From assembly GCA_944391735.1 (NCBI GenBank), contig CALXUR010000003.1:12287-76286 (forward strand): 64,000 nt of DNA, read 5' to 3'. The stretch comes from an uncultured Alphaproteobacteria bacterium (GTDB lineage Bacteria; Pseudomonadota; Alphaproteobacteria; CAAHEQ01; UBA3637). Numbering within the stretch: position 1 is the stretch's first letter; every line of letters starts with the position of its first letter. The notes beneath the pieces are model-generated. The model was not told the DNA's origin. It was given only the letters and a program-made list of their open reading frames with translations, and did no database searches. The translations under genes were made by a program, and so were the position numbers. Below are positions 7,407-59,892 of the stretch, one piece after another.

Positions 7407-7443
7407 CAAAAAGAAAGACTGAACAAAAAAACATAAAATCAGC

Positions 7444-7472
7444 TTGATTTTTCTTTGGATTCTTTGTATAAT
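7444..7472 (+). promoter_or_regulatory. Consensus promoter of parC. It predicts a leaderless or near-leaderless mRNA.
   Basis: TTGATT (7444-7449), 17 nt spacer, TATAAT (7467-7472). Only 7 nt separate the -10 box from the ATG at 7480. Confidence 0.5.
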
Positions 7473-7479
7473 CTCATCC

Positions 7480-9778: not shown

Positions 9779-10309
9779 TTATCGTTGGCGTTGAGCGTTG
9801 AACGCTTGTCGGAGAAAAGTGGGGCGATTGTTTCCAATTAGAACGATATCGGCAAAAACAGATGCTATTTTGCCGTCTTTGTATTCAACTTTACGAATGA
9901 GGCTGCCATTCGGAGCATAGTTTGTTTTTTGCGACGATTTTCCGTTTTCATCGAATTGAATCCTTTTCTTTATTGTGCCGTCATCATAAAATTCTGTTAT
10001 ACGTCACGGTGTTCCGAGTGAAGAGCACAGGATTGTTCGGATCAATGTATGATTCTTATCAAATGTTTCCCGAGACAGGGGTAATTGGTTGAAACCATAT
10101 TCCGTTTTGGATTTTAATTCCCCCGAGGCATCATATTTCCATTTCGTTTTCAGTTCATTGTTTGAATCATACTGTGTGCGGGATAGAATATGACCGTTTT
10201 GATCGTATTCATTTTTAAAACGACTGAAAGCGTTGTGTCCCGATTTTGTTTTAATATTGCCGTTTTCGTATCGTTCTATGGCTATATTCGATTGAGATGT
10301 ATCTGTCAT
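9779..10309 (-). pseudogene. Fragment of an RHS/YD-repeat protein gene, frameshifted and truncated
   Basis: Two minus-strand frames give consecutive YD repeats (YENGNIKTKSGHN..EYDQNGHIL..YDSNNEL..YDASGELKSKTEY and FYDDGTIKKRIQFDENGKS..YAPNGSLIRKVEYKDGKIAS). Only about 175 aa survive. AT-rich. Confidence 0.55.
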
Positions 10310-20433: not shown

Positions 20434-21552
20434 ATGGATAAAAAACAAACCGCTAATCTAAGAAATCAATCTTGTCAAAATGAGTCGGGAAAATCGATGG
20501 TTGAAATGTTGGGTGTCTTGGCTTTGATGGGATTATTGGCTATTCTGGGGGCTAAAGGATATAATATGGCGATGGAACGTGTGGCGTCGACCCGGATTTT
20601 GAATGAAGTCAATCGACGCTCCGTTGTTTACGCACAACAGATGATGAGTCATACCGAACTGTCGGAATTGGATTCGTCAGAGATGCCCGAAACAATAGAA
20701 GGCGGATATGCTTTTTCAGCCCGGCCTTTGGATAACGCTTTTTTTACGATTACCGTTGAAAATGTGGAAAAAGAAGTCTGTGCTCACATGGTTGATTTGA
20801 ATATGAAAACGGCGTTACGGCTACGTGTTGACGGGCAGATTTCCACAGGGGACAGTCAGATTTGCCAAAAAAGCAACGGCACGTTGGAATATACATTTTC
20901 TAAATTGTTAACTCCTTGTGAGGATTGTTTGGATAATATAACGACTTGTTCTTCAAACGCAGATTGTGAGGCAAATTATGAGTGTAAAAACGGCGTTTGC
21001 TCTTGTGCAATTCCATGTGGTGAGGCGTGTTGTTCAAGCGGTGAGACATGTGTTAATGGAGCTTGCTCGGTTGTTCAGGGCTGCACCAGTGATTTAGATT
21101 GTGACAACGGTATTTGTTTTTCGGATGGCGTGTGTGGGTGCCGGAGTTGGCGTGATTGCAATGAGGAATCCTATTGCGTCTGGCAAGATAGAACGCATTA
21201 TACTTGCTCCGGACGAGCCGACATTGCCCCAGGCAGTGATACGGGACCCTTCGGATGGATGGCGTCCAGCGTTACCATGCGTCAGGAAACGGCGGCGGAT
21301 TTTTGTGATAAGTATGGCAAATCTGATCCAACGGCTGTTGAGGTTGGTATATCGAATTTAGATGCAAATGGATCAATGACACCACCCGATTTTTTGGCGT
21401 GGCTTGGTCAAGGGAATTATTGGATTCAAGGAACAGATCCTTGGGGAAAAGGGTCGCGAGCTCTTATCTACATACATCCAAATAAAAAAATGAATTGGGG
21501 TAGTTTTAATTTGGGATATTTTTATAATAAAAATTATGCCCTCTGTCATTGA
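20434..21552 (+). CDS. Prepilin-type pilin-like protein with a Cys-rich C-terminal domain, paralog of 5871..7406
   Basis: ...QNESG|KSMVEMLGVLALMGLLAILGAKGY prepilin-like N-terminus. The C-terminal half is dense in Cys (CEDCLDNITTCSSNADCEANYECKNGVCSC...). Confidence 0.6.
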   Translation: MDKKQTANLRNQSCQNESGKSMVEMLGVLALMGLLAILGAKGYNMAMERVASTRILNEVNRRSVVYAQQMMSHTELSELDSSEMPETIEGGYAFSARPLDNAFFTITVENVEKEVCAHMVDLNMKTALRLRVDGQISTGDSQICQKSNGTLEYTFSKLLTPCEDCLDNITTCSSNADCEANYECKNGVCSCAIPCGEACCSSGETCVNGACSVVQGCTSDLDCDNGICFSDGVCGCRSWRDCNEESYCVWQDRTHYTCSGRADIAPGSDTGPFGWMASSVTMRQETAADFCDKYGKSDPTAVEVGISNLDANGSMTPPDFLAWLGQGNYWIQGTDPWGKGSRALIYIHPNKKMNWGSFNLGYFYNKNYALCH

Positions 21553-29458: not shown

Positions 29459-30511
29459 TTATCTGCCCCGGGATTGAAGCAGTTTTGCCATAGAAAAGGC
29501 TTTATTATGAATTTGCTGTGTTTCTTTATCTAAAGTGGTATTATCTGTTTTATGAATACCCGTTTTATCCATTAGCTTTTGTTCCATATATGCTTGGATA
29601 CCATATGCATGTGTTTCCGAAGGCAACATCACATATAAATCCTTATAATTTTCAGATGTTTTATTGTCCAAGAGGTCTTCATAAACAGCGATATTTTCAA
29701 TATTACAGTCAAAAATACGGTTAATTAGAGGGTCGTCAAATCTTTTTTGGTGTTGTCGATGGTGTGTCCCCTCATGAAATAAAACGGATACCGCAAAAAA
29801 GTTATCACAATTTTGTAGCCGTTCTTCATTAAAATAAATTTTCCCCTTTTGATAATAGGCAGCATAGATGTGTGTATCTTCAGGCAGTCTATTTTTATGT
29901 TGTTGTGCTTTTTCTTGTTCCGGTGTGAAAAATTCAATTTCGGGTGCGGTTCCATAGATGTGTTTAAAAATTTCAGCGGCTTGTTTTAGTACTTCTTTTT
30001 TTTCCGGTAAAGATGTTTTATTCCAATTTTTTAATTTATTTGTTATTTGAGGTTGGGCGGCAATAAGGGTGGCATAGCTGTCGGCCAACTTTTTTTCATG
30101 ATCCCAAAAACGATTTGGAAAAGTCATTGTAAATAAACATATCCTTAAATTCTTATCATTTTTACGACAAATCCGTATTAAATCATCTAGTGTTTGTCGC
30201 CTTGGGAACAGCGCTTCTAAATAGTCCAATTTCTGTTCTAAAGATAATGTGGTGATTTGAGTCGGAGTTAGCGTTGAAAATTGTTCGACTTTTTGTAATT
30301 TAAGCTGATGATGGAGTCGATAGGTTTGAGCGTAGGTTTGAATTAGTATATTAAAGTCTTGTTGGGATATATTTTCCAACCGATTGTTTTGAATAATTTG
30401 ATTAATGCGTTGTGTATCTTTATCGGAAAAGGGAGTAAAACAGACACTCCCATCAGTATTCATCGTGATTTTACATCGATCCATTAAATCTTCAAATTCA
30501 TTAATATTCAT
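29459..30511 (-). CDS. Hypothetical protein with an HExxH (HEGTHH) zinc-metalloprotease-like motif. Low GC, probably horizontally acquired; candidate secreted effector.
   Basis: 350 aa with no signal peptide. Markedly more AT-rich than its neighbours. LFHEGTHHRQH motif. Lies between the ldcA remnant and the 3' end of a tRNA. Confidence 0.45.
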   Translation of the reverse strand: MNINEFEDLMDRCKITMNTDGSVCFTPFSDKDTQRINQIIQNNRLENISQQDFNILIQTYAQTYRLHHQLKLQKVEQFSTLTPTQITTLSLEQKLDYLEALFPRRQTLDDLIRICRKNDKNLRICLFTMTFPNRFWDHEKKLADSYATLIAAQPQITNKLKNWNKTSLPEKKEVLKQAAEIFKHIYGTAPEIEFFTPEQEKAQQHKNRLPEDTHIYAAYYQKGKIYFNEERLQNCDNFFAVSVLFHEGTHHRQHQKRFDDPLINRIFDCNIENIAVYEDLLDNKTSENYKDLYVMLPSETHAYGIQAYMEQKLMDKTGIHKTDNTTLDKETQQIHNKAFSMAKLLQSRGR

Positions 30512-30669: not shown

Positions 30670-30746
30670 TGGTGGGCCCGGTAGGACTTGAACCCACGAC
30701 CTATCCGTTATGAGCGGACAGCTCTAACCAACTGAGCTACAGGCCC
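30670..30746 (-). tRNA. tRNA with a CAU anticodon: elongator tRNA-Met or lysidine-modified tRNA-Ile2
   Basis: Minus-strand sequence GGGCCTGTAGCTCAGTTGGTTAGAGCTGTCCGCTCATAACGGATAGGTCGTGGGTTCAAGTCCTACCGGGCCCACCA folds as a cloverleaf with CCA encoded. Anticodon loop CUCAUAA. It is not the initiator type. The C4-G69 and C5-G68 pairs are compatible with TilS substrates. Confidence 0.9.
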
Positions 30747-33460: not shown

Positions 33461-33536
<76 letters not shown>

Positions 33537-33542
33537 AATTTA

Positions 33543-33573
33543 AGAGGGTTTGATAAACCCTCTTTTTTATTTT
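33543..33573 (+). terminator. Rho-independent terminator after tRNA-Ala
   Basis: AGAGGGTT-tgat-AAACCCTCT followed by T6. Confidence 0.6.
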
Positions 33574-33657
33574 GGAAGTTAAGCTTTTTTGACAGATCAA
33601 GCTGAAAAGAGATTATTTTTATAAGTCGTTCTATTTAAAATAAAAGATAAAATTTAT

Positions 33658-33686
33658 TTGACTTTGGTATTGAACGAACGTATAAC
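33658..33686 (+). promoter_or_regulatory. Promoter of island gene 33706
   Basis: TTGACT, 17 nt spacer, TATAAC. The same element recurs at 34588-34616. Confidence 0.5.
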
Positions 33687-33705
33687 GGATAAAAAGGGAT
33701 AAGTC

Positions 33706-34158
33706 ATGAAATATATTCTGATTTTAACATTACTGTTGATGAGTGTATCCGCTGGTGCGGTGACAGTTGAGGATATGTCAGAAGCACGAAAGCAAGCAGA
33801 GTTTGAGGCACGTGCGATAGATAAGATTTGTTGGAACGAGGCATTTAAAGATAAGCCGGATACGACAAGAGCTATGTGGGCGGCAGCGGTGCGGAACACA
33901 GACTGCTTATATAAGGAGATAGAAAAACAGGTAAAGCTGGCTTTTTTACCACAGGATCATGAAAAGATGATGGTGTTAATTCATGCAGCCGGTAAAAATA
34001 TAGCGGATATTTACTTTGAGATGCATACCAGTAACCGGTATTGTTACGGGCATTGCGGAACTATGAATAACATCACGCATACGGTGAATGAAATGGAGTT
34101 TTTAATTGGCGTGTTAACAGATTTAATTTTGATGAACAGGATAAAAGACAGTGTATGA
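33706..34158 (+). CDS. Small secreted Cys-containing protein (150 aa), copy 1. Candidate periplasmic immunity protein or lysozyme inhibitor.
   Basis: Signal peptide MKYILILTLLLMSVSAGA. Conserved Cys including CYGHCGTM. Paralogous to 34635..35087. Convergent with a GH108 toxin remnant. Confidence 0.5.
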   Translation: MKYILILTLLLMSVSAGAVTVEDMSEARKQAEFEARAIDKICWNEAFKDKPDTTRAMWAAAVRNTDCLYKEIEKQVKLAFLPQDHEKMMVLIHAAGKNIADIYFEMHTSNRYCYGHCGTMNNITHTVNEMEFLIGVLTDLILMNRIKDSV

Positions 34159-34207
34159 TTATAATAAATATATTTTCGGGAGGGGTTAAACCTCCCGAAT
34201 GAACTAT

Positions 34208-34530
34208 TTACTATTTAATTAAAGATTTTTCAAATCGTTTTTTCCAACCATATCCGAATTTAATTTGATTGGATATGGGTTGTTTTTTTATGTCAGAAAA
34301 ACGTTGTCGGACAATATAATTGTTGACGTCTTTCATTTGTTGAAGAGTTAAATTGTTCAGGGCATTAATAGTTTGAGATCCCATGACACCGTCTTCATCC
34401 ACTTGAAAAGAAGTGAATTGATTAATACCTTGTTGCGCCCATTGGATCGGCTCTGTCAGCGACAACGGCAGGTATTGATTCGCATTAACCGTTAAGGCGG
34501 GTTGCGGAATGGTTGGTTTTGATAGATAAA
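34208..34530 (-). pseudogene. 3' remnant of a GH108/PG_binding_3 toxin gene. Track ORF 34211..34465 covers the C-terminal 84 aa.
   Basis: About 88% DNA identity to the 3' end of 35098..36360. Upstream remnant sequence 34466-34530 (ggtattgattcgcattaaccgttaaggcgggttgcggaatggt) matches an internal part of the full gene near 35943-36010. This indicates an internal deletion. Confidence 0.55.
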
Positions 34531-34587
34531 GCTAAAAAGAAATCGTCTTTATAAACCGGTATATTGAAAATAAAAGATACAAATTAT

Positions 34588-34616
34588 TTGACTTTGATGT
34601 TGAACGAAAGTATAAC
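34588..34616 (+). promoter_or_regulatory. Promoter of island gene 34635, a duplicate of 33658-33686
   Basis: TTGACT, 17 nt spacer, TATAAC. Confidence 0.5.
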
Positions 34617-34634
34617 GGATAAAAAAGGCGAGTC

Positions 34635-35087
34635 ATGAAATATATTCTGATTTTAACATTACTGTTGATGAGTGTATCCGTTGATGCAGCGGAAAAGGAA
34701 GAAGTGTGTGACACGTTGGAATGTGCGAAGGCTCAAGCGCATCACATTGGAAAAACGTGTTGGGATGAGGCGTATAAGGATGATCCGTATTCGACAGCGG
34801 AGATGCGCCGAGCCGATTTTAATGCAAATGATTGCATGTATAAAGCGGTGGAGGAGCAAGTCAGGCAAGCTTTTGAACCGACCGAGCAAGAGCAGGTTTT
34901 AGAATGGATTATGACAGGGTGGCGTGGGGTCAGTCAAACATACTGGATGATTTTTAACAATAATAAATATTGTTACGGTCGTTGTGGAACAATGCAACAT
35001 TTACGAAATACTCCTTTTGAAGCTCAATTTTTAGAGCAGGTTTTGGCTTGGTTAATTCATGCAAATGCAAAGAAAGGGAGTATTTAA
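34635..35087 (+). CDS. Small secreted Cys-containing protein (150 aa), copy 2
   Basis: Same signal peptide as copy 1. CYGRCGTM. Convergent with the intact GH108 toxin gene. Confidence 0.5.
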   Translation: MKYILILTLLLMSVSVDAAEKEEVCDTLECAKAQAHHIGKTCWDEAYKDDPYSTAEMRRADFNANDCMYKAVEEQVRQAFEPTEQEQVLEWIMTGWRGVSQTYWMIFNNNKYCYGRCGTMQHLRNTPFEAQFLEQVLAWLIHANAKKGSI

Positions 35088-35097
35088 CTCCCTTCCT

Positions 35098-36360
35098 TTA
35101 TTTGATAAAGTGACGTTCGCTTCTGGTTGTCAGACCTTTTCGGCGGGTTCCGTATCCGGCTGGGTTTGCGTCAGCGTATTGGTTTATTTGTCCGGAACGT
35201 TGTCGGACAATATAATTGTTGACTTCTTTCATTTGTTGAAGGGTCAAATTATTAAGGGCATTAATGGTTTGTGATCCCATGATGCCGTCTTCATCTACTT
35301 GAAAAGAAGTCAATTGATTAATACCTTGTTGCACCCATTGAATCGGCTCTATCGGAGAATGGTTTGCCAAAAGGTCAAATAAGGTCTTGGCTAACTTTTC
35401 ATTTTTAATTTCTTCAATGCGGTAGGCATCGTAATAATCCATTTTATAAATGGTTGTTGCCTGATCCCTTGTTAAATCCTTAACGGTAGCGGGATATGTT
35501 CTTCCCAAAGTCGGATGGGCCGCTTTAAAACGATTTAATGAACCTTGAATAACACCCATATTGGTCGGTTGATCTATTCTAGTCGGTCTATCTTCATAAC
35601 CGCCCTCTTCCTGATAGACAGATGACAACAGGCGATCAAAACGGGTGGTGGAACCGTAGCCCAAAAGTTCATTCATCTTATCGACCGTCAGGTCATCGGG
35701 GCGCAAAATGCCGGTTCTATCCAAACCGTTATCTCGTTGAAAAGCCGAAATGCCGTCAAACAGTTGTTGGTCGGGATAGGGGGTTATTCCCTCTGACTCC
35801 GGCAGGTAATAGCCCAAGTCGTATAAGGCCTCTTTTGTCGAGATAACGTCTGTGGGAGAGGCGAAAGAGGGGCTGACGGATTGTGTGATAAAAAAGCCCT
35901 GCGCGTCGGTATTGTTATCTGTTAAAAAGTTCGGTTTTATCGGTGGTAACGACGGGTATTGATTTGCATCAACCGTTACGGACGGTTGCGAAATGGTCGG
36001 CTTTTGATAATAATTCGGCGCGGGCAGAGAGTTTAAATCCCGAAAGGCTCGATTTAACAATTTTTCGTTTTCTCGGGCATTTTTTTCGGCACGTTTGCTT
36101 TGGCTTGTTTCTTCCCTATTTTTTTGCTGTGCTTCTTTTTCATCATGGTCTTGTCCGCAGATGCGGTTATAGGGTTTGACATGCTTACCCTTTCGCATAT
36201 GGCCGGGAACGTGAATGAGTTTTTGGCAATGTCCGGATGTGTCGTGTCCTTTGGAACTGAGTTGTCGCTTCGGGATAATTTGTGCCTGTCCCGTGAAAGA
36301 GCTCAGGTTTTGTAATATTTTGGCGATATTGATAAATGCGGTAAGAGATTTTTGATCCAT
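35098..36360 (-). CDS. Polymorphic toxin-like protein: conserved His/Cys-rich N-terminal domain, S/T/P/Q-rich linker, GH108 lysozyme-like domain and PG_binding_3
   Basis: N-terminal GHDTSGHCQKLIHVPGHMRKGKHVKPYNRICGQDHDEKEAQQKN is shared with 38438..38773, 40284..41024 and 36841..37245. The C-terminal half has the EEGGYEDR...DQPTNMGVIQ catalytic block of glycoside hydrolase family 108 and a DEDGIMGSQTINALN PG-binding segment. Start taken as Met18 of the track ORF (RBS AAAGGAAAAGC). Confidence 0.6.
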   Translation of the reverse strand: MDQKSLTAFINIAKILQNLSSFTGQAQIIPKRQLSSKGHDTSGHCQKLIHVPGHMRKGKHVKPYNRICGQDHDEKEAQQKNREETSQSKRAEKNARENEKLLNRAFRDLNSLPAPNYYQKPTISQPSVTVDANQYPSLPPIKPNFLTDNNTDAQGFFITQSVSPSFASPTDVISTKEALYDLGYYLPESEGITPYPDQQLFDGISAFQRDNGLDRTGILRPDDLTVDKMNELLGYGSTTRFDRLLSSVYQEEGGYEDRPTRIDQPTNMGVIQGSLNRFKAAHPTLGRTYPATVKDLTRDQATTIYKMDYYDAYRIEEIKNEKLAKTLFDLLANHSPIEPIQWVQQGINQLTSFQVDEDGIMGSQTINALNNLTLQQMKEVNNYIVRQRSGQINQYADANPAGYGTRRKGLTTRSERHFIK

Positions 36361-36495
36361 GCTTTTCCTTTCAATAAAAAAAGCCCGCCGCAAGAGATTC
36401 CGGACAGGCATAAAAAAATCGGGATATACTTGTCCCGATTAACTAAAAAAAGTATAGCATAAATTAAATGAAAAGTCAAGGAATATTTTCCTATT
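36361..36495. repeat. Conserved 5' leader/promoter element of the toxin genes, copy R1. Other copies: 37261-37388, 38774-38918, 41025-41165.
   Basis: AATAAAAAAGCC(C/T)G(C/T)CG..AGATTCCGGACAGGCATAAAAAAATCGGGATAC recurs immediately upstream of every toxin start codon. R1 and R4 also share AAAAGTCAAGGAATATTTTCCTAT. Confidence 0.6.
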
Positions 36496-36556
36496 TTTGA
36501 TTTGTAAATGACTCCTTTTATATTCGTTGGGAAGAACAACGGGATTAAGAAGAGGG

Positions 36557-36796
36557 CTATTTCGGGTTTACGGGATAGAAACGGCATATTTGTTTTTCTA
36601 TATCCCAAACACCTCGGCCATAGCAAGTGTCTTCATTAACAACGCATTCAGTTCCCCAATCACAGTGCGCAAATATAAATCCCTTGGGACAAATACCACC
36701 CGAGAGACAATCATCCTCCCGTAAATCTATATAAGTCATAAGAGCGACTGTCACTATGGTAAAAACTGTCAAACACATAAAAAAGAAAAACTTCAT
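36557..36796 (-). CDS. Small secreted Cys-rich protein (79 aa, 8 Cys). Candidate immunity protein downstream of the decayed toxin 36841..37245.
   Basis: Signal peptide MKFFFFMCLTVFTIVTVAL. Same strand as the toxin remnant and directly 3' of it. Confidence 0.4.
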   Translation of the reverse strand: MKFFFFMCLTVFTIVTVALMTYIDLREDDCLSGGICPKGFIFAHCDWGTECVVNEDTCYGRGVWDIEKQICRFYPVNPK

Positions 36797-36840
36797 GTTA
36801 AAATGATATCAAGAATTTTTTTTGAAAGCAAGAGTGAAGT

Positions 36841-37245
36841 CTAATATTTCAAAGGTAAGCCTGATGGTCTGAAAATGCCACAGCTTTCACTTAATGTTTT
36901 TCCTTTATTGGCTCCCCGCAATCCGGAAATATTTGCTTTCATGTCAGATAAACTTTCATTAGGACCATATTTAAAAACATCTTTACTTTCTTTTAACAGA
37001 GATAACAGAAGGCCTACTAGGTTACCGTAGACACCCCGTGAACCGGCTTCATAGTTTGCTTTACAGTGAAAGTATTTATCTCCGCCGATAAAATTAGTTT
37101 TATTCATATCATTAAAATTTCGGATGAAATCTTTGAGCGGTGCAAATAGTCCGGTCGTTGTTTTTTCCGCTTGATTTTTTTATTGAGCTTCTTTTTCGTC
37201 GGGTGCTGGCACACCGATTGCATTTCCGATGGGTTCTGTTTCCAT
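36841..37245 (-). pseudogene. Decayed toxin paralog: the N-terminal domain carries an internal in-frame deletion and a CAA-to-TAA nonsense codon (37180-37182). The C-terminal small domain is of unknown function.
   Basis: METEPIGNAIGVPAPDE joins directly to KEAQ(*)KNQAEK, with the central roughly 55 codons missing. The same frame continues into track ORF 36841..37107 (FIGGDKYFHCKANYEAGSRG...). Confidence 0.5.
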
Positions 37246-37478
37246 GATCTTTTTCCTTTCAATAAAAAAGCCCGCCGCAAGAGATTCCGGACAGGCATAA
37301 AAAAATCGGGATACACTTTTATTTTAAAAAACTTGTTTTTTACTTTTGAAATTGATAGAATTGTATAAAGGTTTAAAGAGGATATCTAATGAAATATGTA
37401 TTTGGAATTATTTTGGGATTGTTTTTGGTTTCTTGTCAAACACAAGAACCGGTTCAATTTAAAAATCCGATTTTTTAT
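37195..37478. repeat. Duplicated module of about 285 bp: toxin N-terminus, leader, divergent intergenic region and lipoprotein N-terminus. Second copy at 38725-39008.
   Basis: Near-identical stretches from CGTCG(G/A)GTG..CACCGATTGCATTTCCGATGGGTTCTGTTTCCATGATCTTTTTCC through ...CAATTTAAAAATCCGATTTT. Confidence 0.6.
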
Positions 37479-37772
37479 GAAACACTTTATCCTATTTCCA
37501 AGACGGTTCGGGAGACGCGATTGACACCGACGAAGATATATGTGAATGCATTTATTTCGGAAAAAGAGTGTCGATTGCTAAAGAATACCGAGACCGTTTT
37601 GGAGTTTTCCTGTGAATACGACCATCCGTTCAGCGGGCATTTTTCGGATGTATTTTATCGGTATGTTATTGAAGGGGAGGAATCAAAATATACCAATTGT
37701 TTGATTGTTAGGTTGGAAATGCCCGGTGGAACAGCCTGGTTTTGTATTCACCGAGAAAAACCACAGGATTAA
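37389..37772 (+). CDS. Lipoprotein (127 aa), island-associated. Candidate immunity protein.
   Basis: MKYVFGIILGLFLVSCQTQEPVQFKNPIF lipobox. The N-terminal 30 aa are identical to 38919..39389. Convergent with the lysozyme-like toxin domain gene. Confidence 0.55.
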   Translation: MKYVFGIILGLFLVSCQTQEPVQFKNPIFYETLYPISKTVRETRLTPTKIYVNAFISEKECRLLKNTETVLEFSCEYDHPFSGHFSDVFYRYVIEGEESKYTNCLIVRLEMPGGTAWFCIHREKPQD

Positions 37773-37829
37773 GAATGTGATCGTTGCATATCGACTATTT
37801 GACTACTCGGCTGAAGATATATAGTGCAA

Positions 37830-38773
37830 CTATTTGTTTCTATATTTACAAGGAGAATAAAACCATCCATTGATTAATGGAATTTCCCGTAAAGTATTTC
37901 TGGCCCAATCATTGCGGGTTTTTCCGACCTGATATCTATTTACCTCGTTAATCATTTGAAAAACATTTTTTTTGTTAACGCCCTCAAAGAAAAAATGCCA
38001 TTTTTCAGAATTAAAATTGTGCCCCATATTATATTGCATGTCTAATAAAACCATTTGTAGCGTTCTGGGATATGTTTCAAATGCCGGAAATTTTGATTCT
38101 AATTCAGCTAAGTCATTTCCCAAATGTTCCATTGTTTTATCAATAATTGTGTGTTCGGATAGAGTTAGTTCTTGGGAATGATTTGTTACACGGAAGTCTT
38201 CTGAAGTATAATTTTTTCCAAATATTTTCTGTTTTTGAAAATCCAAGAGTCGTTTATATTCGCCTAGTTTTTGCTCGGTTGTAGCCTCTTTTCCTTGATA
38301 CATCCAGGGGAGTGATATAAAGGTTTTTTGATTCGGAATATATAACCCGCTGGCGGCTGTTATCTTTCCCAATGTATCCAAATAGGCATAATTGATTGAT
38401 CCTTCATGTTTTTTTAGATATGGCCAGTATGCTTGAATTAATTCATCATATTTTCGTTGTTTTTTTTAGATACAGTTTCTTTTTGAGAAAGTGTTTCTTT
38501 GTTAACTTTTTCCGCTTGGTTTTCTTGTTGAGCTTCTTTTTCGTCATGGTCACGGCCACAGGTGCGGTTATAGGCGTTGACGGGTTTGCCTTCGCGGCTA
38601 TGAGCGGGAACATGTATCATTTTTTGACAATGCCCCGATGTGTCGTGTCCGTTTTGAGAATTATCGCTGTTTCCGAACAGAAAAGCGAATAGATTTTGTC
38701 GGTTATTATTGACTTGGTTGTTTTCGTCGAGTGTCGGTACACCGATTGCATTTCCGATGGGTTCTGTTTCCAT
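37830..38773 (-). pseudogene. Toxin paralog split by a frameshift at a T8/A8 homopolymer: N-terminal conserved domain (38438..38773) and T4-lysozyme-like C-terminal domain (37830..38381)
   Basis: The N-domain ORF stops 20 codons after the A8 run. The downstream ORF frame is open from immediately after the run. Inserting one A fuses them. The C-terminal domain has LLDMQYNMG...NRYQVGKTRNDWARNTL, resembling the phage/T4 lysozyme (GH24) C-terminal lobe. Confidence 0.55.
38460..38467. repeat. T8 homopolymer (A8 on the coding strand) at the frameshift site
   Basis: gttg-TTTTTTTT-agat. A +1 slippage restores a roughly 310-aa open reading frame. Confidence 0.6.
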
Positions 38774-38918
38774 GATCTTTTTCCCTTCAATAAAAAAAAG
38801 CCTGCCGCAAGAGATTCCGGACAGGCATAAAAAAATCGGGATACACTTTTATTTTAAAAAACTTGTTTTTTACTTTTGAAATTGATAGAATTGTATAAAG
38901 GTTTAAAGAGGATATCTA

Positions 38919-39389
38919 ATGAAATATGTATTTGGAATTATTTTGGGATTGTTTTTGGTTTCTTGTCAAACACAAGAACCGGTTCAATTTAAAAATCCGA
39001 TTTTTAATAAAAAACTAGAAGCTATTTCCAAAATTCTTAATGATGTAAAAATAACTCCGACAGAAATTATAGATCTAAAGGATCCGGAGGTATTACCGGC
39101 AACGTGTGAGTTATTGTCCGATGAAGGATATCGTATTATTATGAAGTGTGTGCAGCCCTATCGAACAATACCGGTGCAAACGGTGTATTACCGTTTTACA
39201 AATATGGGAAAATATGAACCATTCTATTCGTCAGAAAAAAATCTGTGTGAAATTCATCAGGAGCAATGTGATGATATGGATTTTCAAAATTTTTACTCTT
39301 GGGGTGTTTTTGTCGTTCGATTAAACGATGGGGAGGATTGTGGTCCTCAGATGCCTGAAGACCAACTCCCCGAATGGTTGATCAGGTAA
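38919..39389 (+). CDS. Lipoprotein (156 aa), island-associated. Candidate immunity protein.
   Basis: Lipobox LVSC. The C-terminal roughly 90 aa (ATCELLSDEGYRIIMKCVQPYRTIPVQTVYYRFTNMGKYEPFYSSEKNLCEIHQEQCDDMDFQNFYSWGVFVVRLNDGEDCGPQ) are identical to 39445..39912. Confidence 0.55.
   Translation: MKYVFGIILGLFLVSCQTQEPVQFKNPIFNKKLEAISKILNDVKITPTEIIDLKDPEVLPATCELLSDEGYRIIMKCVQPYRTIPVQTVYYRFTNMGKYEPFYSSEKNLCEIHQEQCDDMDFQNFYSWGVFVVRLNDGEDCGPQMPEDQLPEWLIR
39081..39350. repeat. 270-bp direct repeat at near-100% identity. Second copy at 39610-39879.
   Basis: Identical from GATCCGGAGGTATTACCGGCAACGTGTGAG through GAGGATTGTGGTCCTCAG. It encodes the shared C-terminal part of the two lipoproteins. Confidence 0.6.
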
Positions 39390-39444
39390 ATGTTATCTTC
39401 TATTTTATGATTGAGGTAATTATATAAAGTTTTAAAGAGAGTAT

Positions 39445-39912
39445 TTGATGAAGCATGTGTTCGGGGTTATTTTGAGTGTGTTCTTGGTTGCTTGTCAAAC
39501 GCAAGAAGCGGTTCAATTTAAAAACCCGGTTTTTAATAGAAAGTTGGCATCAAATGTGAGTATGGATTACGATATTGTGATAACGCCGAGAATCATGGTC
39601 ACTTTAAATGATCCGGAGGTATTACCGGCAACGTGTGAGTTATTGTCCGATGAAGGATATCGTATTATTATGAAGTGTGTGCAGCCCTATCGAACAATAC
39701 CGGTGCAAACGGTGTATTACCGTTTTACAAATATGGGAAAATATGAACCATTCTATTCGTCAGAAAAAAATCTGTGTGAAATTCATCAGGAGCAATGTGA
39801 TGATATGGATTTTCAAAATTTTTACTCTTGGGGTGTTTTTGTCGTTCGATTAAACGATGGGGAGGATTGTGGTCCTCAGGCACCTAAGGACCAACTTCCC
39901 GAATGGTTTTGA
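39445..39912 (+). CDS. Lipoprotein (155 aa), tandem paralog of 38919..39389 with a divergent N-terminal third
   Basis: MMKHVFGVILSVFLVACQTQEAVQFKNPVF lipobox. The C-terminus is identical to the upstream paralog. Confidence 0.55.
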   Translation: MMKHVFGVILSVFLVACQTQEAVQFKNPVFNRKLASNVSMDYDIVITPRIMVTLNDPEVLPATCELLSDEGYRIIMKCVQPYRTIPVQTVYYRFTNMGKYEPFYSSEKNLCEIHQEQCDDMDFQNFYSWGVFVVRLNDGEDCGPQAPKDQLPEWF

Positions 39913-39936
39913 TTATACTATTTTTATTTTTTTGTT

Positions 39937-40251
39937 TTAAAGAGTAAAAGCTAAATATATATTCAACCCGATAAAATACAAAAGCGGATAACTTAATATT
40001 ATAACGGATTGCCACGGTTGTTGGTGATGACGCAGTCGTGCATACCATAAACAAAGGATAATCAGTATTGCTTCGGTTAAGTTGACTACAGTATAGTTAA
40101 GGGGATGATGATACATCCAACCTAAATTATCCGCTTGCCAGGGTATTTCCGGATTGGCAATATCTTGGAAACACCCGATAAAGAGAAAGCCTGTCAGAAA
40201 GATATTAAAAGCGGCAAGTAAAAAAAATAGAATGCGTTGAATATATTTCAT
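39937..40251 (-). CDS. Small polytopic membrane protein (104 aa). Candidate immunity protein directly downstream of the Tlde1-like toxin.
   Basis: Three predicted TM segments. Same strand as 40284..41024, 32 nt downstream. Confidence 0.45.
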   Translation of the reverse strand: MKYIQRILFFLLAAFNIFLTGFLFIGCFQDIANPEIPWQADNLGWMYHHPLNYTVVNLTEAILIILCLWYARLRHHQQPWQSVIILSYPLLYFIGLNIYLAFTL

Positions 40252-40283
40252 AATATTAATACTATCATCTTTTAAAAAAATGT

Positions 40284-41024
40284 CTAGTATTTAACTTGAA
40301 CAATAACATCATATCCATTATTTTGAAACCATTTTGCAAAATCAGCCATTGCCTTTGTTAGATCAATACATCCGGCAGAACCTGGCGTTAAGCCTCCATG
40401 AATAGAAAAATTATTTCTTCCATATAGATTAGTATCATTCGCTGGTGTTAACCAAATGCGTTGTTCTCCCCATGCAGCTGTTCCACCTCTCCACTGTCCG
40501 CCACCTATTGAAGACTTAAATTTTTGCCATGCTCCCAAATTTTCCCACTTTTGAAAATCGCTGATTTTTGCAACATAATTGTCTTCGGGAAGTGGACCAT
40601 AATTTTTTAAATCCTGATAATTTGGATGTTGAAAGCCCGGTCGTCCGGATACACCTTTCCATTCCTTAATAATTTCTCCATTTTCGTGCAGGGTAAGACT
40701 TTTACCATTAAAAGATAAATACTGCCCATTTTTTAGGTTTAATGGAGTATTCCATTGTGTATATGGATTATTTTTTTGTTGAGCCTCTTTTTCGTCGTGG
40801 TTACGGCCGCAGATGCGTTCATAGGCGTTGACGGGTTTGCCTTCGCGGCTATGAGCGGGAACATGTATCATTTTTTGACAATGCCCCGATGTGTCGTGTC
40901 CGTTTTGAGAATTGTCGCTGTTTCCGAACAGAAAAGCGAATAGATTTTGTTGACTGTTATTTCTCGGATTGTTTTCGTCGGGTGCTGGCACACCGATTGC
41001 ATTTCCGATGGATTGTGTTTCCAT
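40284..41024 (-). CDS. Polymorphic toxin-like protein: conserved His/Cys-rich N-terminal domain and Tlde1/DUF2778-like (YkuD L,D-transpeptidase-fold) C-terminal domain
   Basis: N-terminus METQSIGNAIGVPAPDENN...NGHDTSGHCQKMIHVPAHSREGKPVNAYERICGRNHDEKEAQQKN. C-terminus has ...GRPGFQHPNYQDLKNYGPLPEDNYV and FSIHGGLTPGSAGCIDL (His...SxGC catalytic motif of the YkuD/Tlde1 family). Confidence 0.6.
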   Translation of the reverse strand: METQSIGNAIGVPAPDENNPRNNSQQNLFAFLFGNSDNSQNGHDTSGHCQKMIHVPAHSREGKPVNAYERICGRNHDEKEAQQKNNPYTQWNTPLNLKNGQYLSFNGKSLTLHENGEIIKEWKGVSGRPGFQHPNYQDLKNYGPLPEDNYVAKISDFQKWENLGAWQKFKSSIGGGQWRGGTAAWGEQRIWLTPANDTNLYGRNNFSIHGGLTPGSAGCIDLTKAMADFAKWFQNNGYDVIVQVKY

Positions 41025-41242
41025 GGTCTTTTTCCTTTCAATAAAAAAGCCTGTCGGATCAGATTCCGAACAGGCATTAAAAAAATCGGGATACATTTAT
41101 CCCGATTAACTGAAAGATATCATATCATAAATCAGATTAAAAGTCAAGGAATATTTTCCTATAAATAGAAATATTTTCTTTATTGACTTTTGTCGGGAGG
41201 CGTGAAATACTGAACGAAAGTTGACGATGAAAGGAGAAGGTT

Positions 41243-57542: not shown

Positions 57543-57992
57543 ATGTCAAAACTCATAGAATTGTATTTACAAATTTTTCATTTTTGGATGCGCTTTCCCG
57601 AAAAAGTGCGTTATCTGTTGGTTGGCGGATATAACACGGTTATTTCATATGCGTTGTATGCATTGTTTTTGTGGATGTCCGACAGTCACCATCCGCAGGC
57701 GGCTTTGTTCGCTTCCTTTTTAATATCGTCGATTAACAGTTATTGGACGCAAAAGATTTATGTGTTCGGAACCAGAGGAAACTATGGTCGGGAATATGTG
57801 CGCTGTCTTTTTTCATGGGGGATCAGTTATCTGATGAATGTCTGCCTGTTGCAGTTTTTTCTATGGCTGAATTGGAATCCCTATGTTGCTCAATTTTTAG
57901 CATTGGCGTTGGTGACGGTTAACAGTTACCTGATGTTGAAATATATTGCTTTTCAAAATCATAAAAGGGGAAATCATGTTCGCGACCTATAA
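57543..57992 (+). CDS. GtrA-family membrane protein
   Basis: RYLLVGGYNTVISYALYALF GtrA-like motif. Four TM segments. Confidence 0.65.
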   Translation: MSKLIELYLQIFHFWMRFPEKVRYLLVGGYNTVISYALYALFLWMSDSHHPQAALFASFLISSINSYWTQKIYVFGTRGNYGREYVRCLFSWGISYLMNVCLLQFFLWLNWNPYVAQFLALALVTVNSYLMLKYIAFQNHKRGNHVRDL

Positions 57993-59892
57993 GCGTGTTT
58001 TTTGGTTATCGGCGTTGATGAGCGTCTTTGTTTTTGCTCCTTTTTACGTGACGGGATTTTCGACGGATGTATGGACGCATTTGATTCGGATTCGGGAATG
58101 GGTAGCGGCCGGTTTCCCGTGGCGGGAGCAGTTGTTAATGTCCTATAATTTCCCGTTCGGAGATGAAATGCATTGGACCAGACCGTTGGACATTATCGGC
58201 TATATTTTTGCGTGGCCGTTTATTCCCGGATGGGGATTGAAAAGAGCTCTGGAAATCATGGCGGCTTTTACACCGATTTTGTTTTTAATTGTCGGTGTGC
58301 GAGGATTCTTTTTCGGATTACGTGGTTATTTAACGCCACGGATGGCTTTTCTGGCTTTTTGGCTTTTTTTCTGGGGTATCGGATACGGGTGGGGACAATC
58401 CTTGCCGGGGTATTTTGATCAACATGTGTTTCATTTCGCGTTGTTATTATGGTGTATCGGTTTGATTTTAAGAAGCTTCCGGGTTAAAGAAAACGCAGGG
58501 TGTTTGGTGTGGAGTGGTATTTTAGGGGCAATCGGAACATGGATAACGGCCGACTTTTTTGTTAACTTATATATTTTATCGCTTCCTTTTGCGCTTGGGT
58601 GGCTGATACGTAATATGTCGTTAAAGCCTCTATTGCTCTTTTTCGGCAGTTACACACTTGTGTTGGGTGGTGTTATGTTGTTTGATCATCCGATAGGCGG
58701 TTTTTTCAGTCTTGATTTATATCGGCCGTCTTTGATTCATGTGATAATCGGGGCGATGACGTGTTTGGCTGTCGGCGTATTGATGTTTTTATTTCGATAT
58801 GTTCGGTCGACGTGTTTCCGGCGTTTGATTTATGGCACGTTGATATGTTTGAGTGTCGGTCTCTTTTTGATTTTGGTTTTTGGTGATGTGTTCATGCGGC
58901 CGCCGTATGACCTGTGGATGTATCACACATGGGTTAAACATGTCAGTGAAATGCAACCTTTATGGTCCAGTTGGAATGAATTATTGGAATACACGATTTT
59001 ACCGTTCATTTTGGCAATCGGTATGATGGTGTGGGTGATTCGCCGATACCGTTCTCCTTTAATGCCGTTGGTCGTAATCGGTGCCGCGGGAACGATTATA
59101 TACGCTTGTGTAATGGCATTTCATGTGCGTGTCGGTATTAGCCAGATGGCATTTTTTGTTTATTTAGGTGCCGCTTTTTTGAATCTTGTTTTTTTCCCGC
59201 GGGAGAAATCTTTTAAAATCTCCTTTTTATTTGTGGTCTTTTATTTAATTTTTATGGGAACGCATTTAAAAGGGAATGAAATTTTAACACGTATCAAAAC
59301 ATGGGGTGTTCAACATTATTTGGAAATGTATAAAAAGGACAACACAATTGACGTGCCGGAATATCTGAAACCGTTATTTGAAAATGCCGTTCGGGAAGAA
59401 ATGAAAAATAATCGGTCTGAAACAGCCGAAAAACCGAAAGAGGAAGTTCCCGAAAAACAGGATTTTAAGTGTGTTTCAAATGAAAAAATATGGGATGTTA
59501 TTCGTCAGGACGCCTCAAACGGCGCGTTGTTTACGGATATTTTTTCGGCACCTCAATTGGTTTGGGAAACGGGGAAGCCGACTTTGGGCGGGCCGTATCA
59601 TACAAATGTAGCGGGGATTACCGATTTGTTTTCTATTCAAACGGATCGTCCGCCGTATCATCGGGCGCGGGCACTTTTGAAAAAACATCAAGTGACGCAG
59701 TTATACTTGTTTCATCCGTCCTGTCAATCTGTTTTATTTGAAAAAAATGGCGGTAAAACAGAGCCGTATACAAAGAATATGTTTCATTTCGCCGTGTATC
59801 ATGAAACCGAAGACATGCCGGATTGGGTTCGATTGGAATATGAAGATCCCGCAACGCATATTAAAATTTTTCGTGTTGAACCGGTAAAATGA
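57976..59892 (+). CDS. Large polytopic membrane protein, possibly a GT-C-fold glycosyltransferase
   Basis: More than 12 TM helices then a soluble C-terminal domain. Adjacent to and overlapping the GtrA-like gene. RBS AAGGGG before the ATG at 57976. Confidence 0.4.
   Translation: MFATYKRVFWLSALMSVFVFAPFYVTGFSTDVWTHLIRIREWVAAGFPWREQLLMSYNFPFGDEMHWTRPLDIIGYIFAWPFIPGWGLKRALEIMAAFTPILFLIVGVRGFFFGLRGYLTPRMAFLAFWLFFWGIGYGWGQSLPGYFDQHVFHFALLLWCIGLILRSFRVKENAGCLVWSGILGAIGTWITADFFVNLYILSLPFALGWLIRNMSLKPLLLFFGSYTLVLGGVMLFDHPIGGFFSLDLYRPSLIHVIIGAMTCLAVGVLMFLFRYVRSTCFRRLIYGTLICLSVGLFLILVFGDVFMRPPYDLWMYHTWVKHVSEMQPLWSSWNELLEYTILPFILAIGMMVWVIRRYRSPLMPLVVIGAAGTIIYACVMAFHVRVGISQMAFFVYLGAAFLNLVFFPREKSFKISFLFVVFYLIFMGTHLKGNEILTRIKTWGVQHYLEMYKKDNTIDVPEYLKPLFENAVREEMKNNRSETAEKPKEEVPEKQDFKCVSNEKIWDVIRQDASNGALFTDIFSAPQLVWETGKPTLGGPYHTNVAGITDLFSIQTDRPPYHRARALLKKHQVTQLYLFHPSCQSVLFEKNGGKTEPYTKNMFHFAVYHETEDMPDWVRLEYEDPATHIKIFRVEPVK

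Follow-up and report, generated by a model that had tools for sequence, protein, structure and literature searches.

What does the AT-rich block beside a transfer RNA (tRNA) gene in a 64-kb stretch of an uncultured Alphaproteobacteria genome (contig CALXUR010000003.1) encode, and how would its products be kept diverse, controlled and delivered? The whole 64-kb stretch is called the window here, and the toxin block is its 7.7-kb segment at 33537-41240, for which an earlier note, made from the sequence alone, had proposed a family of toxin genes with immunity partners. Relatives were retrieved from ENA, Logan and NCBI metagenome assemblies, some with record names (XIEF21, and locus tags such as IJ660 and J6Y85) that may point to genomes assembled from ruminant gut metagenomes, and their loci are labelled L001-L021 and their proteins P0001-P0020. 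As read from its genes, the block is by architecture a polymorphic toxin/immunity system, since three of the four defining features of such systems were found. Two are a single N-terminal region on unrelated toxin domains and displaced 3' ends together with orphan immunity genes, and for a third, a partner type that tracks the toxin type in independent loci, the evidence is comparative-genomic; no trafficking domain could be recognised and no secretion system is linked, which would have been the fourth. We consider it highly probable that the block is a resident hypervariable locus of interbacterial antagonism, that is, a polymorphic toxin family of periplasm-acting enzymes with immunity partners. 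A constant 5' module, consisting of a leader and an N-terminal region of ~85 amino acids (aa), would be joined there to interchangeable envelope-damaging C-terminal enzymes: a GH108 muramidase, a T4-lysozyme-like muramidase, a Tlde1 L,D-transpeptidase/carboxypeptidase, and a serum amyloid A (SAA)/Lipocone domain predicted to cleave lipid-linked precursors.

Putative toxin genes and their shared N-terminal domain

The paralogous minus-strand toxin genes and the one shared N-terminal domain (N-domain) that the earlier note had described were all found. Two of the five paralogues in the block are intact (A and D), two are disrupted (B and C) and one is a 3' remnant (E), which bears out the claim that the copies stand at different stages of decay and duplication. 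Comparison of the copies by repeat analysis revealed that the DNA of leader and N-domain is 74-91% identical, whereas the downstream parts are unrelated.

35098-36360, minus strand: toxin A, intact, 420 aa; N-domain, PG_binding_1, GH108 and a PG_binding_3-like tail
36118-36249, 35704-35853 and 35359-35622, minus strand: N-domain core, PG_binding_1 and GH108 muramidase of toxin A (Pfam)
36841-37245, minus strand: toxin B, pseudogene with a C-terminal SAA/Lipocone domain (Pfam and translation)
37830-38773, minus strand: toxin C, split, T4-lysozyme-like (GH24-like); N-domain core at 38519-38650
40284-41024, minus strand: toxin D, intact, 246 aa; N-domain core at 40770-40901, Tlde1/YkuD-like L,D-transpeptidase at 40317-40634
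~34211-34530, minus strand: remnant E, the displaced 3' end of a GH108-type toxin; linker fused directly to PG_binding_3, C-terminal tail different

Profile searches for GH108, PG_binding_3 and Tlde1 all returned significant matches. In toxin A, GH108 was matched at 2.8e-13 (50.6 bits, cut-off 21.2) and PG_binding_1 at 1.1e-9, with a weak match to PG_binding_3; the NCBIfam holin-associated N-acetylmuramidase was matched at 2.2e-15, under the family cut-off, and an EEGGY motif is visible in the translation. Remnant E matched PG_binding_3 at 1.5e-6, and its DNA is 90% identical to 35196-35358. Toxin D matched Tlde1_dom (PF10908) at 7.7e-9 (36.5 bits, cut-off 30.1) and, weakly, YkuD (0.018); it has the His...S-x-G-C motif, read as HGGLTPGSAGC, and its cluster contains 10 near-identical members from other contigs.

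The T4-lysozyme-like assignment of toxin C stood on other grounds than those proposed for it, since no Pfam family, Phage_lysozyme included, was matched. A profile built from six members of the toxin C family matched T4 gp5 lysozyme, T4 lysozyme and pesticin in the PDB, with E-values from 4.7e-4 (best) to 0.02 for T4 gp5 and T4 lysozyme, and hhalign aligned the family with T4 lysozyme over the whole length (E 3.4e-4, probability 38%). The only invariant acidic or hydroxyl residues of the family are E21, D30 and T36 (E-x8-D-x5-T), and their spacing equals that of Glu11, Asp20 and Thr26 in T4 lysozyme. Since the Phage_lysozyme profile misses it, toxin C would be a divergent member of GH24. In the window copy, a 1-nucleotide (nt) deletion in an A8 run (T8 on the plus strand, 38460-38467) separates the frames, so that the N-domain open reading frame (ORF) of 111 aa lies in another frame than the enzyme domain; the orthologue P0005 in L003 is intact, at 302 aa. 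The break at 38455-38480 reads TCT AAA AAA AAC and contains, in the right phase, the classical -1 slippery heptamer A_AAA_AAC, at which a -1 shift would restore full-length toxin C. The L017 copy, reading GAA AAA AAC, has the identical frameshift and retains the heptamer, and P0019, from a second clade, has a frameshift in the same linker, in an A5 run. The frameshift of toxin C could thus reflect either decay or slippage-dependent low-level expression.

Toxin B carries an in-frame TAA at 37180-37182, and an in-frame deletion has taken the His/Cys core of its N-domain, leaving only the first ~16 aa and the EKEAQ linker of the N-region. Its C-terminal domain matched SAA (PF00277) at 5.3e-14, or at 6.5e-18 (65.4 bits, cut-off 30.8) with the upstream in-frame residues. 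Intact SAA alleles occur elsewhere, full-length in P0003 (213 aa) and core-less in L017 (134 aa). In the passages of PMC12419801 (Burroughs et al., eLife 2025) that deal with them, bacterial SAA domains are placed in the Lipocone superfamily and prok-SAA is predicted to cut lipid-linked cell-wall precursors, not peptidoglycan itself. The earlier note had left this fourth domain unassigned, and its claim that the identifiable C-terminal domains all act on peptidoglycan concerns the GH108, T4-lysozyme-like and Tlde1 domains. As the four domain types are identified, all of them are predicted to attack the envelope from the periplasmic side.

The three window copies of the N-domain align over 85 residues with a ~45-aa His/Cys core, and residues 42-85 are almost identical among them (GHDTSGHCQK.IHVP.H.R.GK.V..Y.R.CG..HDEKEAQQ.N). 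Across the family, at 31-62% identity, C49, V55, R60, Y68, R70, C72, G73 and H76 are invariant, and H43, D44, S46, G47, H54, H58 and G62 nearly so; this invariant His/Cys pattern suggests a small metal-binding or disulfide-stabilised knuckle. The N-terminus ahead of the core measures 0 to ~55 aa, is polar, and often contains an N-L-[LF]-x-x-[YF]-[IL] helix. An AlphaFold2 (AF2) model from an 11-sequence alignment was unusable, with a predicted local distance difference test (pLDDT) score of 38.

An exhaustive HMMER search of 1.84 billion representative proteins yielded 17 matches to the N-domain at E<=0.001, three of them repetitive artefacts. In the ~14 genuine clusters, the N-domain always comes first and is followed by one of the same four enzyme types, or else the ORF is truncated; domains that act in the cytoplasm, nucleases included, were not seen in any of them.

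SAA on the N-domain: P0003, P0010, P0013
GH108 on the N-domain: P0004
T4-lysozyme-like domain on the N-domain: P0005, P0006, P0008, P0011, P0015, L019 gene
Tlde1 on the N-domain: P0007, P0014, P0020
N-domain-only ORFs: P0001, P0002, P0009, P0019

A word-indexed search of 5.8 billion clusters gave two N-domain proteins, or eight with a broader profile, and a one-genome-per-species scan of 185,579 species gave one N-domain locus. No Pfam match was obtained for 12 variants at E up to 10, nor any match in the NCBIfam or PDB profile searches; the domain was not found in 2.9 million viral contigs, in 50,697 phage records or in 72,556 plasmids, and protein and degenerate DNA patterns run on JGI metagenomes gave only six chance matches.

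Partner genes and the dynamics of the locus

If these are toxins, are their neighbours the corresponding immunity genes, as the earlier note had supposed? Seven neighbouring genes are candidates.

33706-34158, plus strand: 150-aa secreted Cys-containing protein, paralogue a, signal-peptide-like N-terminus; candidate immunity gene left with remnant E
34635-35087, plus strand: 150-aa secreted protein, paralogue b, convergent with toxin A; candidate GH108 immunity gene
36557-36796, minus strand: 79-aa membrane-anchored Cys-rich protein, downstream of the SAA gene and co-directional; candidate immunity gene
37389-37772, plus strand: 127-aa lipoprotein, lipobox LVSC, convergent with toxin C; candidate immunity gene against the clade-1 T4-lysozyme-like toxin
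38919-39389, plus strand: 156-aa lipoprotein; orphan candidate immunity gene against a clade-2 T4-lysozyme-like toxin
39445-39912, plus strand: 155-aa lipoprotein, tandem paralogue of the 156-aa gene (82% identity); second orphan candidate immunity gene
39937-40251, minus strand: 104-aa protein with ~3 hydrophobic segments, 32 nt downstream of the Tlde1 toxin and co-directional; candidate immunity gene

The pairing of partner type with toxin type recurs in other strains and loci. A GH108 toxin is paired with a 150-aa secreted protein in L001 and L018 as well; paralogue a, which has no Pfam or NCBIfam match, is 43% identical to paralogue b at 34635-35087 and 95% conserved in L001. For the clade-1 lysozyme-like toxins (window C, L003 and L019) the partner is a convergent lipoprotein of 123-127 aa, and the window copy is 69% identical to the L003 lipoprotein beside the intact orthologous toxin. 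The clade-2 toxins P0006 (L014) and P0011 (L015) are convergent with lipoproteins of 154-159 aa, 48% and 37-40% identical to the window genes at 38919-39389 and 39445-39912; because the window contains no clade-2 toxin, these two genes are taken as orphan immunity genes. The Tlde1 toxin is accompanied by the 104-aa protein in four strains (window, L001, L017 and L018), and in L004 its place after the distant Tlde1 toxin P0007 is taken by a non-homologous polytopic protein of 120 aa. The 79-aa protein is 98.6% identical, over 73 aligned residues, to the gene downstream of the intact SAA toxin in L013, and weakly similar (E 0.014) to a 71-aa gene after the distant SAA toxin P0010 in L006. PMC12419801, in the part that concerns prok-SAA toxins, couples them to a small Cys-stabilised immunity domain, to which the 79-aa protein may correspond.

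A profile search with the lipoprotein family gave 40 clusters, more than the toxin clusters obtained by the same method, and the few named ones are entered as 'MAG: ... Alphaproteobacteria bacterium' (MAG, metagenome-assembled genome). In L020, a tRNA-Val gene has on its 3' side, at 6021-8946, a tandem array of five lipoprotein paralogues together with a polytopic protein of 121 aa; no toxin gene is present, but behind three of the five lipoprotein genes there is a remnant, 25-46 aa long, of a lysozyme-like 3' end. One neighbour lipoprotein was modelled as a lipocalin-like barrel, whose second-best structural match is a type VI secretion system (T6SS) immunity protein. The supposition about the neighbours thus gained comparative support from type-specific pairing, orphan arrays and the lipocalin-like fold, and from the same evidence we infer that each toxin type would be neutralised by its own neighbour. 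All partners would face the periplasm: the lipocalin-like lipoprotein, the secreted 150-aa protein, the Cys-rich anchored protein and the small polytopic protein.

In a further locus, L021 (10001-17607), a distant homologue of the immunity lipoproteins is located beside two Cys-rich proteins; the locus also encodes a Phage_Mu_F protein, the C-terminal part of which looks by eye like a lysozyme, and a homologue of Tlde1 (37% identity) that lacks the N-domain. Judging from L021, toxin and immunity modules seem to circulate on other carriers.

Strains were also compared. The window, L001, L017 and L018 represent strains of one species, and L003 a sister species from a MAG labelled uncultured Alphaproteobacteria. 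In the direction from AnmK to the tRNA gene, the cassette order is D, C, B, A, E in the window; SAA, Tlde1, GH108 in L001 and L018; and C, SAA, Tlde1 in L017. At this site L003 has only one pair, an intact lysozyme-like toxin with its lipoprotein. L001 has a split GH108 gene, against intact copies in the window and L018, and the frameshift of toxin C is shared by the window and L017. The SAA gene is intact and full-length in L013, full-length with the TAA in L001 (~10247-10249), core-deleted and open in L017 (gene at 9167-9571), and core-deleted with the TAA in the window. The occurrence of the same stop on full-length and on core-deleted alleles, both of which also exist stop-free, indicates recombination between alleles. 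Pseudogenes, 3' remnants and orphan immunity genes are the footprints of recombination that this comparison revealed. The constant module of ~330 bp would supply the homology by which cassettes are duplicated, displaced and reshuffled between strains, and by these sequence comparisons the locus is a resident recombination hot spot.

The variable locus is bordered on the left by tRNA-Ala and on the right by a conserved lipoprotein gene at 41243.

33461-33536, plus strand: tRNA-Ala(CGC), by ARAGORN; Rfam tRNA 64.9 bits; left border of the variable locus
33542-33564, plus strand: terminator-like hairpin 3' of tRNA-Ala; 10-bp stem, then a T run

The same tRNA-Ala flanks the variable locus in L001, L003 and L018. 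One flank carries AnmK, an acyltransferase and a 214-aa lipoprotein, and the other a 213-aa protein, MscS and CarD; these housekeeping genes keep the same order in the second strain (L001) and the sister species, with 97-98% identity between window and L001. GC content is 0.378 in the block against 0.458 on each flank, with a range of 0.435-0.479 in 82 same-size windows elsewhere in the 64 kb, which confirms the lower GC noted before. The block had also been described as an island next to tRNA-Ala. It does lie directly after the tRNA gene; however, no integrase was found among the ORFs of the locus, no second copy of the tRNA-Ala 3' end was found with <=3 mismatches allowed, and the site is occupied in the sister species. 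A classical tRNA-integrated island is thereby ruled out, and the locus is better described as resident and hypervariable than as a recent insertion. Cassettes 3' of a tRNA gene occur in three independent contexts, namely the window, L019 (tRNA-Ala GGC) and L020 (tRNA-Val).

The remaining window is housekeeping, including SecY, RpoA, ParC, GyrA, PepN, S1, Era and MiaB-like genes. In agreement with the earlier note, secretion-machinery genes were absent among the 20 largest other window ORFs (15 housekeeping, five without a Pfam match). Several further genes of the window lack a Pfam match. Paralogous proteins of 511 and 372 aa, encoded at 5871-7406 and 20434-21552 on the plus strand, combine long Cys-rich C-terminal regions with an N-terminus of prepilin type in which Glu stands at +5 (G|RSMVEMLGVLAIMGLLA and G|KSMVEMLGVLALMGLLA). 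An HEGTH motif (HExxH, zincin-like) is present in a 350-aa protein encoded at 29459-30511 on the minus strand, in a second AT-rich patch (GC ~0.37) adjoining tRNA-Met at 30670-30746. A 648-aa polytopic membrane protein is encoded at 57946-59892 on the plus strand, in a region with T strongly over A (AT skew -0.35).

The putative regulatory leader

What would control these toxins? The shared 5' leader reported by the earlier note is real and is complete upstream of toxins A and D, but B and C keep only its 3' part. Six further loci (locus GC 0.37-0.50), which represent four lineages or more, have the same leader upstream of their homologous genes.

36358-36492, minus strand: full leader of A; palindrome and -35 at 36475-36492, -10 TATACT at 36451-36456; covariance model 97.4 bits
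36417-36440 and 36383-36409, minus strand: hairpin 1 with U7 and hairpin 2 with U7 of leader A, then the Shine-Dalgarno sequence
37243-37324, minus strand: leader of B, truncated and without promoter, reduced to hairpin 2, the 3' arm of hairpin 1 and the Shine-Dalgarno sequence; covariance model 64.8 bits
38771-38854, minus strand: truncated leader of C; covariance model 66.1 bits
41022-41160, minus strand: full leader of D; palindrome and -35 at 41143-41160, -10 TATGAT; z = -4.0; covariance model 100.4 bits
41084-41107 and 41049-41075, minus strand: hairpin 1 with U7 and hairpin 2 with U6 of leader D, then the Shine-Dalgarno sequence

An 18-nt element, AGGAAAAT(A/T)TTCCTTGAC, is exactly conserved in seven loci and merges a 5-N4-5 palindrome with the -35 hexamer. 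A 17-nt spacer and an extended -10 (TGnTATACT or TATGAT) follow, and ~10 nt past the -10 comes hairpin 1, AATCGGGA-N8-TCCCGATT with U7; hairpin 2 with its U6-8 run is next, and the Shine-Dalgarno sequence and ATG come last. Hairpin 1 is kept as sequence, loop included, with two compensatory pair changes in L015, whereas hairpin 2 is kept as structure only, with compensatory changes in seven of its eight pairs. Across seven distinct leaders, 94.6% of the cells are paired, and sliding the partner strand by 1-3 columns lowers this to 36-51%; for both hairpins together, 9/16 pairs show double changes, against 0-2 in the slid controls, and none of 500 shuffles reached the observed values. A covariance model of the leader, run on 143 kb (window and loci), gave 12 strong matches of 64-100 bits, all directly upstream of N-domain toxin genes, and nothing else above 27 bits. 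No Rfam family matches the leader.

The leaders of B and C start at the loop of hairpin 1 and hence have neither the promoter nor the 5' arm of that hairpin; a duplication junction put the upstream region of a divergent lipoprotein gene in the promoter's place. Longer ORFs for A and D, starting at upstream in-frame ATGs and running through the hairpins, were rejected as coding because the extension is not kept in other loci, L014 having GTG TAA and L015 no start at this place. In L005 (3394-3555 and 3082-3166), P0015, the most divergent member, is preceded by a 53-aa ORF and a weak leader match (27 bits, E 0.008), and an RTX-repeat protein is encoded just upstream of this region.

Taken together, the leader is inferred to be a strong operator-controlled promoter followed by two intrinsic terminators that must be overcome for expression. 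Transcription would start at the promoter with its palindromic operator and then be gated by the two tandem terminator-like hairpins, and the leader would keep the toxins off until a signal permits read-through. This arrangement recalls phage late-gene control, in which a strong constitutive promoter is followed by a terminator that is overcome by an antiterminator such as lambda Q. Here too, a near-consensus promoter and then terminator-like hairpins precede muramidase genes; in contrast to the phage arrangement, no antiterminator gene was identified, the hairpins are two in tandem, the operator is palindromic, and there is no phage context.

The resemblance raises the question whether the genes are weapons at all. 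They might be lysis enzymes derived from a phage or a gene transfer agent, or housekeeping autolysins with inhibitors, serving remodelling or lysis of the cell's own wall. GH108 and GH24 are typical endolysin folds, a weak match to a holin-associated muramidase was seen, and a strong promoter followed by terminators resembles the control of phage late genes. However, no phage genes lie nearby, the N-domain was not found in the viral contigs, phage records and plasmids searched, Tlde1 and SAA are not lysis enzymes, and it is conflict systems that are typically marked by polymorphism, by arrays of orphan immunity genes and by shuffling at strain level. We therefore consider a non-weapon function very improbable.

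A second reading would connect leader and N-domain directly: the N-domain would be a zinc-knuckle-like nucleic-acid binder that acts on hairpin 1 in autoregulation or antitermination, with the N-domain-only ORFs as regulators. Hairpin 1 and the His/Cys domain are indeed co-conserved across genera, and such short ORFs are recurrent (P0001, P0002, P0009 and P0019). But homology and structure lend this no support, frameshifts and stops account for the short ORFs, the L019 toxin has the N-domain core without the leader, and the toxin would still need an export signal; we give this reading hardly any credence. Against both, a polymorphic family of antibacterial toxins behind a gated promoter is the interpretation carried forward here.

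Possible routes of delivery and known systems

How, then, would the toxins reach their targets? The toxin translations carry no signal peptide; the toxins would therefore be harmless in the cytoplasm of the producer and need a dedicated exit route, their targets being met only in the periplasm of a recipient cell. The N-domain would be the best candidate for the tag recognised by that export route or by an uptake step into the target. We favour a route ending in the target periplasm. Two such routes, import through the outer membrane in the manner of a bacteriocin and delivery as T6SS cargo, appear about equally likely.

For the first of these, the products would be diffusible colicin-like bacteriocins, with the N-domain and the polar N-terminus as a receptor-binding and translocation module that delivers into the periplasm only; an outer-membrane transporter of relatives would be parasitised, as by the ferredoxin domain of pectocins, and the toxins would be released by lysis of a few induced producers. 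All four C-terminal domain types are periplasm-acting, and the two activities known from bacteriocins that work in the periplasm, the T4-like muramidase of pesticin type and the cleavage of lipid II as by colicin M, both have equivalents in this family, pesticin being among the PDB matches. The ~95-aa ferredoxin domain of pectocins sets a precedent for a small uptake domain (PMC3302902, PMC4671253), and polymorphic toxins of ColM type have been described (PMC5821083). Transcription of the toxins would be tightly gated, and taxonomically they are very restricted. Of the four immunity genes, two converge on their toxin and are transcribed separately, as are the immunity genes of colicin M and of pore-forming colicins. 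On the other side, no TonB or Tol box motif is conserved at the extreme N-terminus of the family, where only the loose N-L-[LF]-x-x-[YF]-[IL] helix recurs and the pre-core part varies from 0 to ~55 aa; no lysis gene candidate was recognised, no SOS box (GTTC-N7-GTTC) was found in the island, and no TonB-dependent receptor gene is linked. In addition, the literature retrieved places Tlde1 in the T6SS. Pesticin, colicin M and the ferredoxin pectocins (PMC3302902, PMC4671253, PMC5821083) are similar in combining N-terminal targeting with a periplasmic enzyme, in their periplasmic immunity and in their swapped killing domains. The present locus differs from them in lacking a recognisable TonB box, receptor-binding domain and SOS box and in being chromosomal; moreover, its lipid-II candidate has the SAA/Lipocone fold, not the ColM fold of colicin M. 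Import of this kind is a tentative possibility.

Delivery as cargo of a T6SS encoded elsewhere in the genome, with the N-domain as a new marker or loading domain like MIX, FIX, RIX and WHIX, is a conjecture of the same weight. Tlde1 is an established T6SS effector family (PMC9638812), the effectors are without signal peptides, and polymorphic orphan T6SS effectors that have immunity genes next to them are defined by short marker domains at the N-terminus (PMC10435454, PMC12135965). Like these MIX/FIX/RIX/WHIX effectors, the toxins have a short shared N-domain, no signal peptide, and orphan loci with immunity genes. They differ in that the N-domain has no sequence relation to those domains (no Pfam match), the cargo is periplasm-acting only and the range is narrow, confined to a few uncultured lineages, unlike that of known marker domains. 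No Hcp, VgrG, PAAR, adaptor or core T6SS genes were seen in the 64-kb window or the related loci inspected, the repertoire is limited to periplasmic targets, and half of the immunity genes are convergent, not operonic. Toxin D resembles Salmonella Tlde1 of the Tlde1/Tldi1 pair, an antibacterial effector with an LD-transpeptidase fold (PMC9638812), in its Tlde1 domain above the Pfam cut-off and its His...S-x-G-C motif. It departs from it in its extra N-domain, its small polytopic membrane neighbour, and the lack of a T6SS cluster. Tldi1, unlike that neighbour, is periplasmic and soluble.

A third possibility, distinctly less likely than either of these, is that the toxins are substrates of a bacteria-killing type IV secretion system (T4SS) or leave by another path, such as the flagellar type III secretion system, vesicles or holin-like release. 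The T4SS variant is unlikely in itself and is kept alive by a single adjacency: at 6001-12372 of L019, an intact N-domain/GH24 toxin and its lipoprotein directly follow virB10-like and virB11 genes and tRNA-Ala(GGC). The upstream genes encode a VirB11-type ATPase and a 2156-aa protein with a TrbI/VirB10 domain, and the conserved leader is absent from this locus. The killing T4SS of Xanthomonas type likewise has effectors that for the most part act in the periplasm, with lipoproteins as their immunity proteins. Nevertheless, the adjacency occurs once in ~8 independent contexts, and T4SS signals are usually C-terminal, while the window toxins end with the toxin domain; since Pfam finds no further domain in them, they carry no XVIPCD-like C-terminal signal.

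Several observations weigh against the reading of the block as an antagonism locus. Two of the four toxin genes in the window are disrupted, and toxicity and protection alike are predictions from the genes. Apart from VirB10/VirB11 in L019, no secretion or uptake machinery was found in the window and ~80 kb of related loci. The role of the N-domain as a delivery tag is conjectural, because no relative of known function could be detected for it and the AF2 model cannot be used. The SAA motif of the window clade reads ANISGLR, with the Arg shifted by one relative to the family's sNxxGR (P0010 has NADGR), and on this account the SAA domain of the clade may be altered in catalysis. As to the partners, a 37%-identical homologue of the 104-aa protein occurs in L014 without a Tlde1 gene, the lipocalin-like fold is generic, and none of the putative immunity proteins is homologous to a characterised one.

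Among known systems, the block can be compared with the polymorphic toxin systems of Zhang and Aravind, including contact-dependent inhibition (CDI), Rhs and MafB, with which it shares a constant N-region, variable tips, adjacent immunity genes, displaced remnants and reshuffling. It differs from them in that its constant part, a mere ~85 aa long, has no database match, that RHS, filamentous and PAAR regions are absent, that no secretion genes are linked and that only four envelope-targeting domains are carried. The prok-SAA toxins of the Lipocone superfamily similarly have SAA as the toxin tip followed by a small Cys-rich membrane-anchored protein (PMC12419801, in its sections on these toxins). 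In contrast to them, the window copy is a pseudogene with the sNxxGR motif shifted in its clade, and the N-domain is not among the trafficking domains named in the passages of PMC12419801 concerned. The tandem lipoprotein genes have a parallel as well. The window pair at 38919-39912 and the five genes in L020 are tandem, diversified immunity paralogues without a toxin. Gut Bacteroidales have acquired interbacterial defence clusters that are orphan immunity gene arrays of this sort; in the present case, however, no recombinase or mobile-element genes were seen and the hosts are Alphaproteobacteria. The block should not be classed with T6SS effector islands, colicin-type bacteriocin loci or tRNA-integrated islands, because for each of these a defining feature was sought and not found.

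The overall logic of polymorphic toxins and immunity genes is thus of a familiar kind. What is new is the N-domain, a single carrier limited to four cell-wall enzymes with a bacterial SAA domain among them, and the conserved leader of operator, promoter and double terminator. The N-domain may be an unrecognised delivery module, for example a metal-binding 'Trojan horse' that enters by an outer-membrane transporter or a new export tag, taking periplasm-acting cargo only, with the leader working by conditional antitermination; we offer this as a speculation. The delivery step and the leader, though unexplained, are directly testable, and the leader, with its covariation support, two tandem terminators and exact operator, is a testable case of gated toxin expression. 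Four cell-wall enzymes on one carrier form a clean system for studying how toxins reach only the periplasm. Bacterial SAA toxins and their candidate immunity genes also bear on the enzymatic, antibacterial origin of animal serum amyloid A proposed in the relevant passages of PMC12419801. More broadly, antagonism arsenals of toxin and immunity genes influence which strains can coexist in dense communities. To our knowledge, no antagonism systems have been characterised in uncultured Alphaproteobacteria, and the N-domain provides a compact marker for finding new envelope-targeting toxins in these bacteria.

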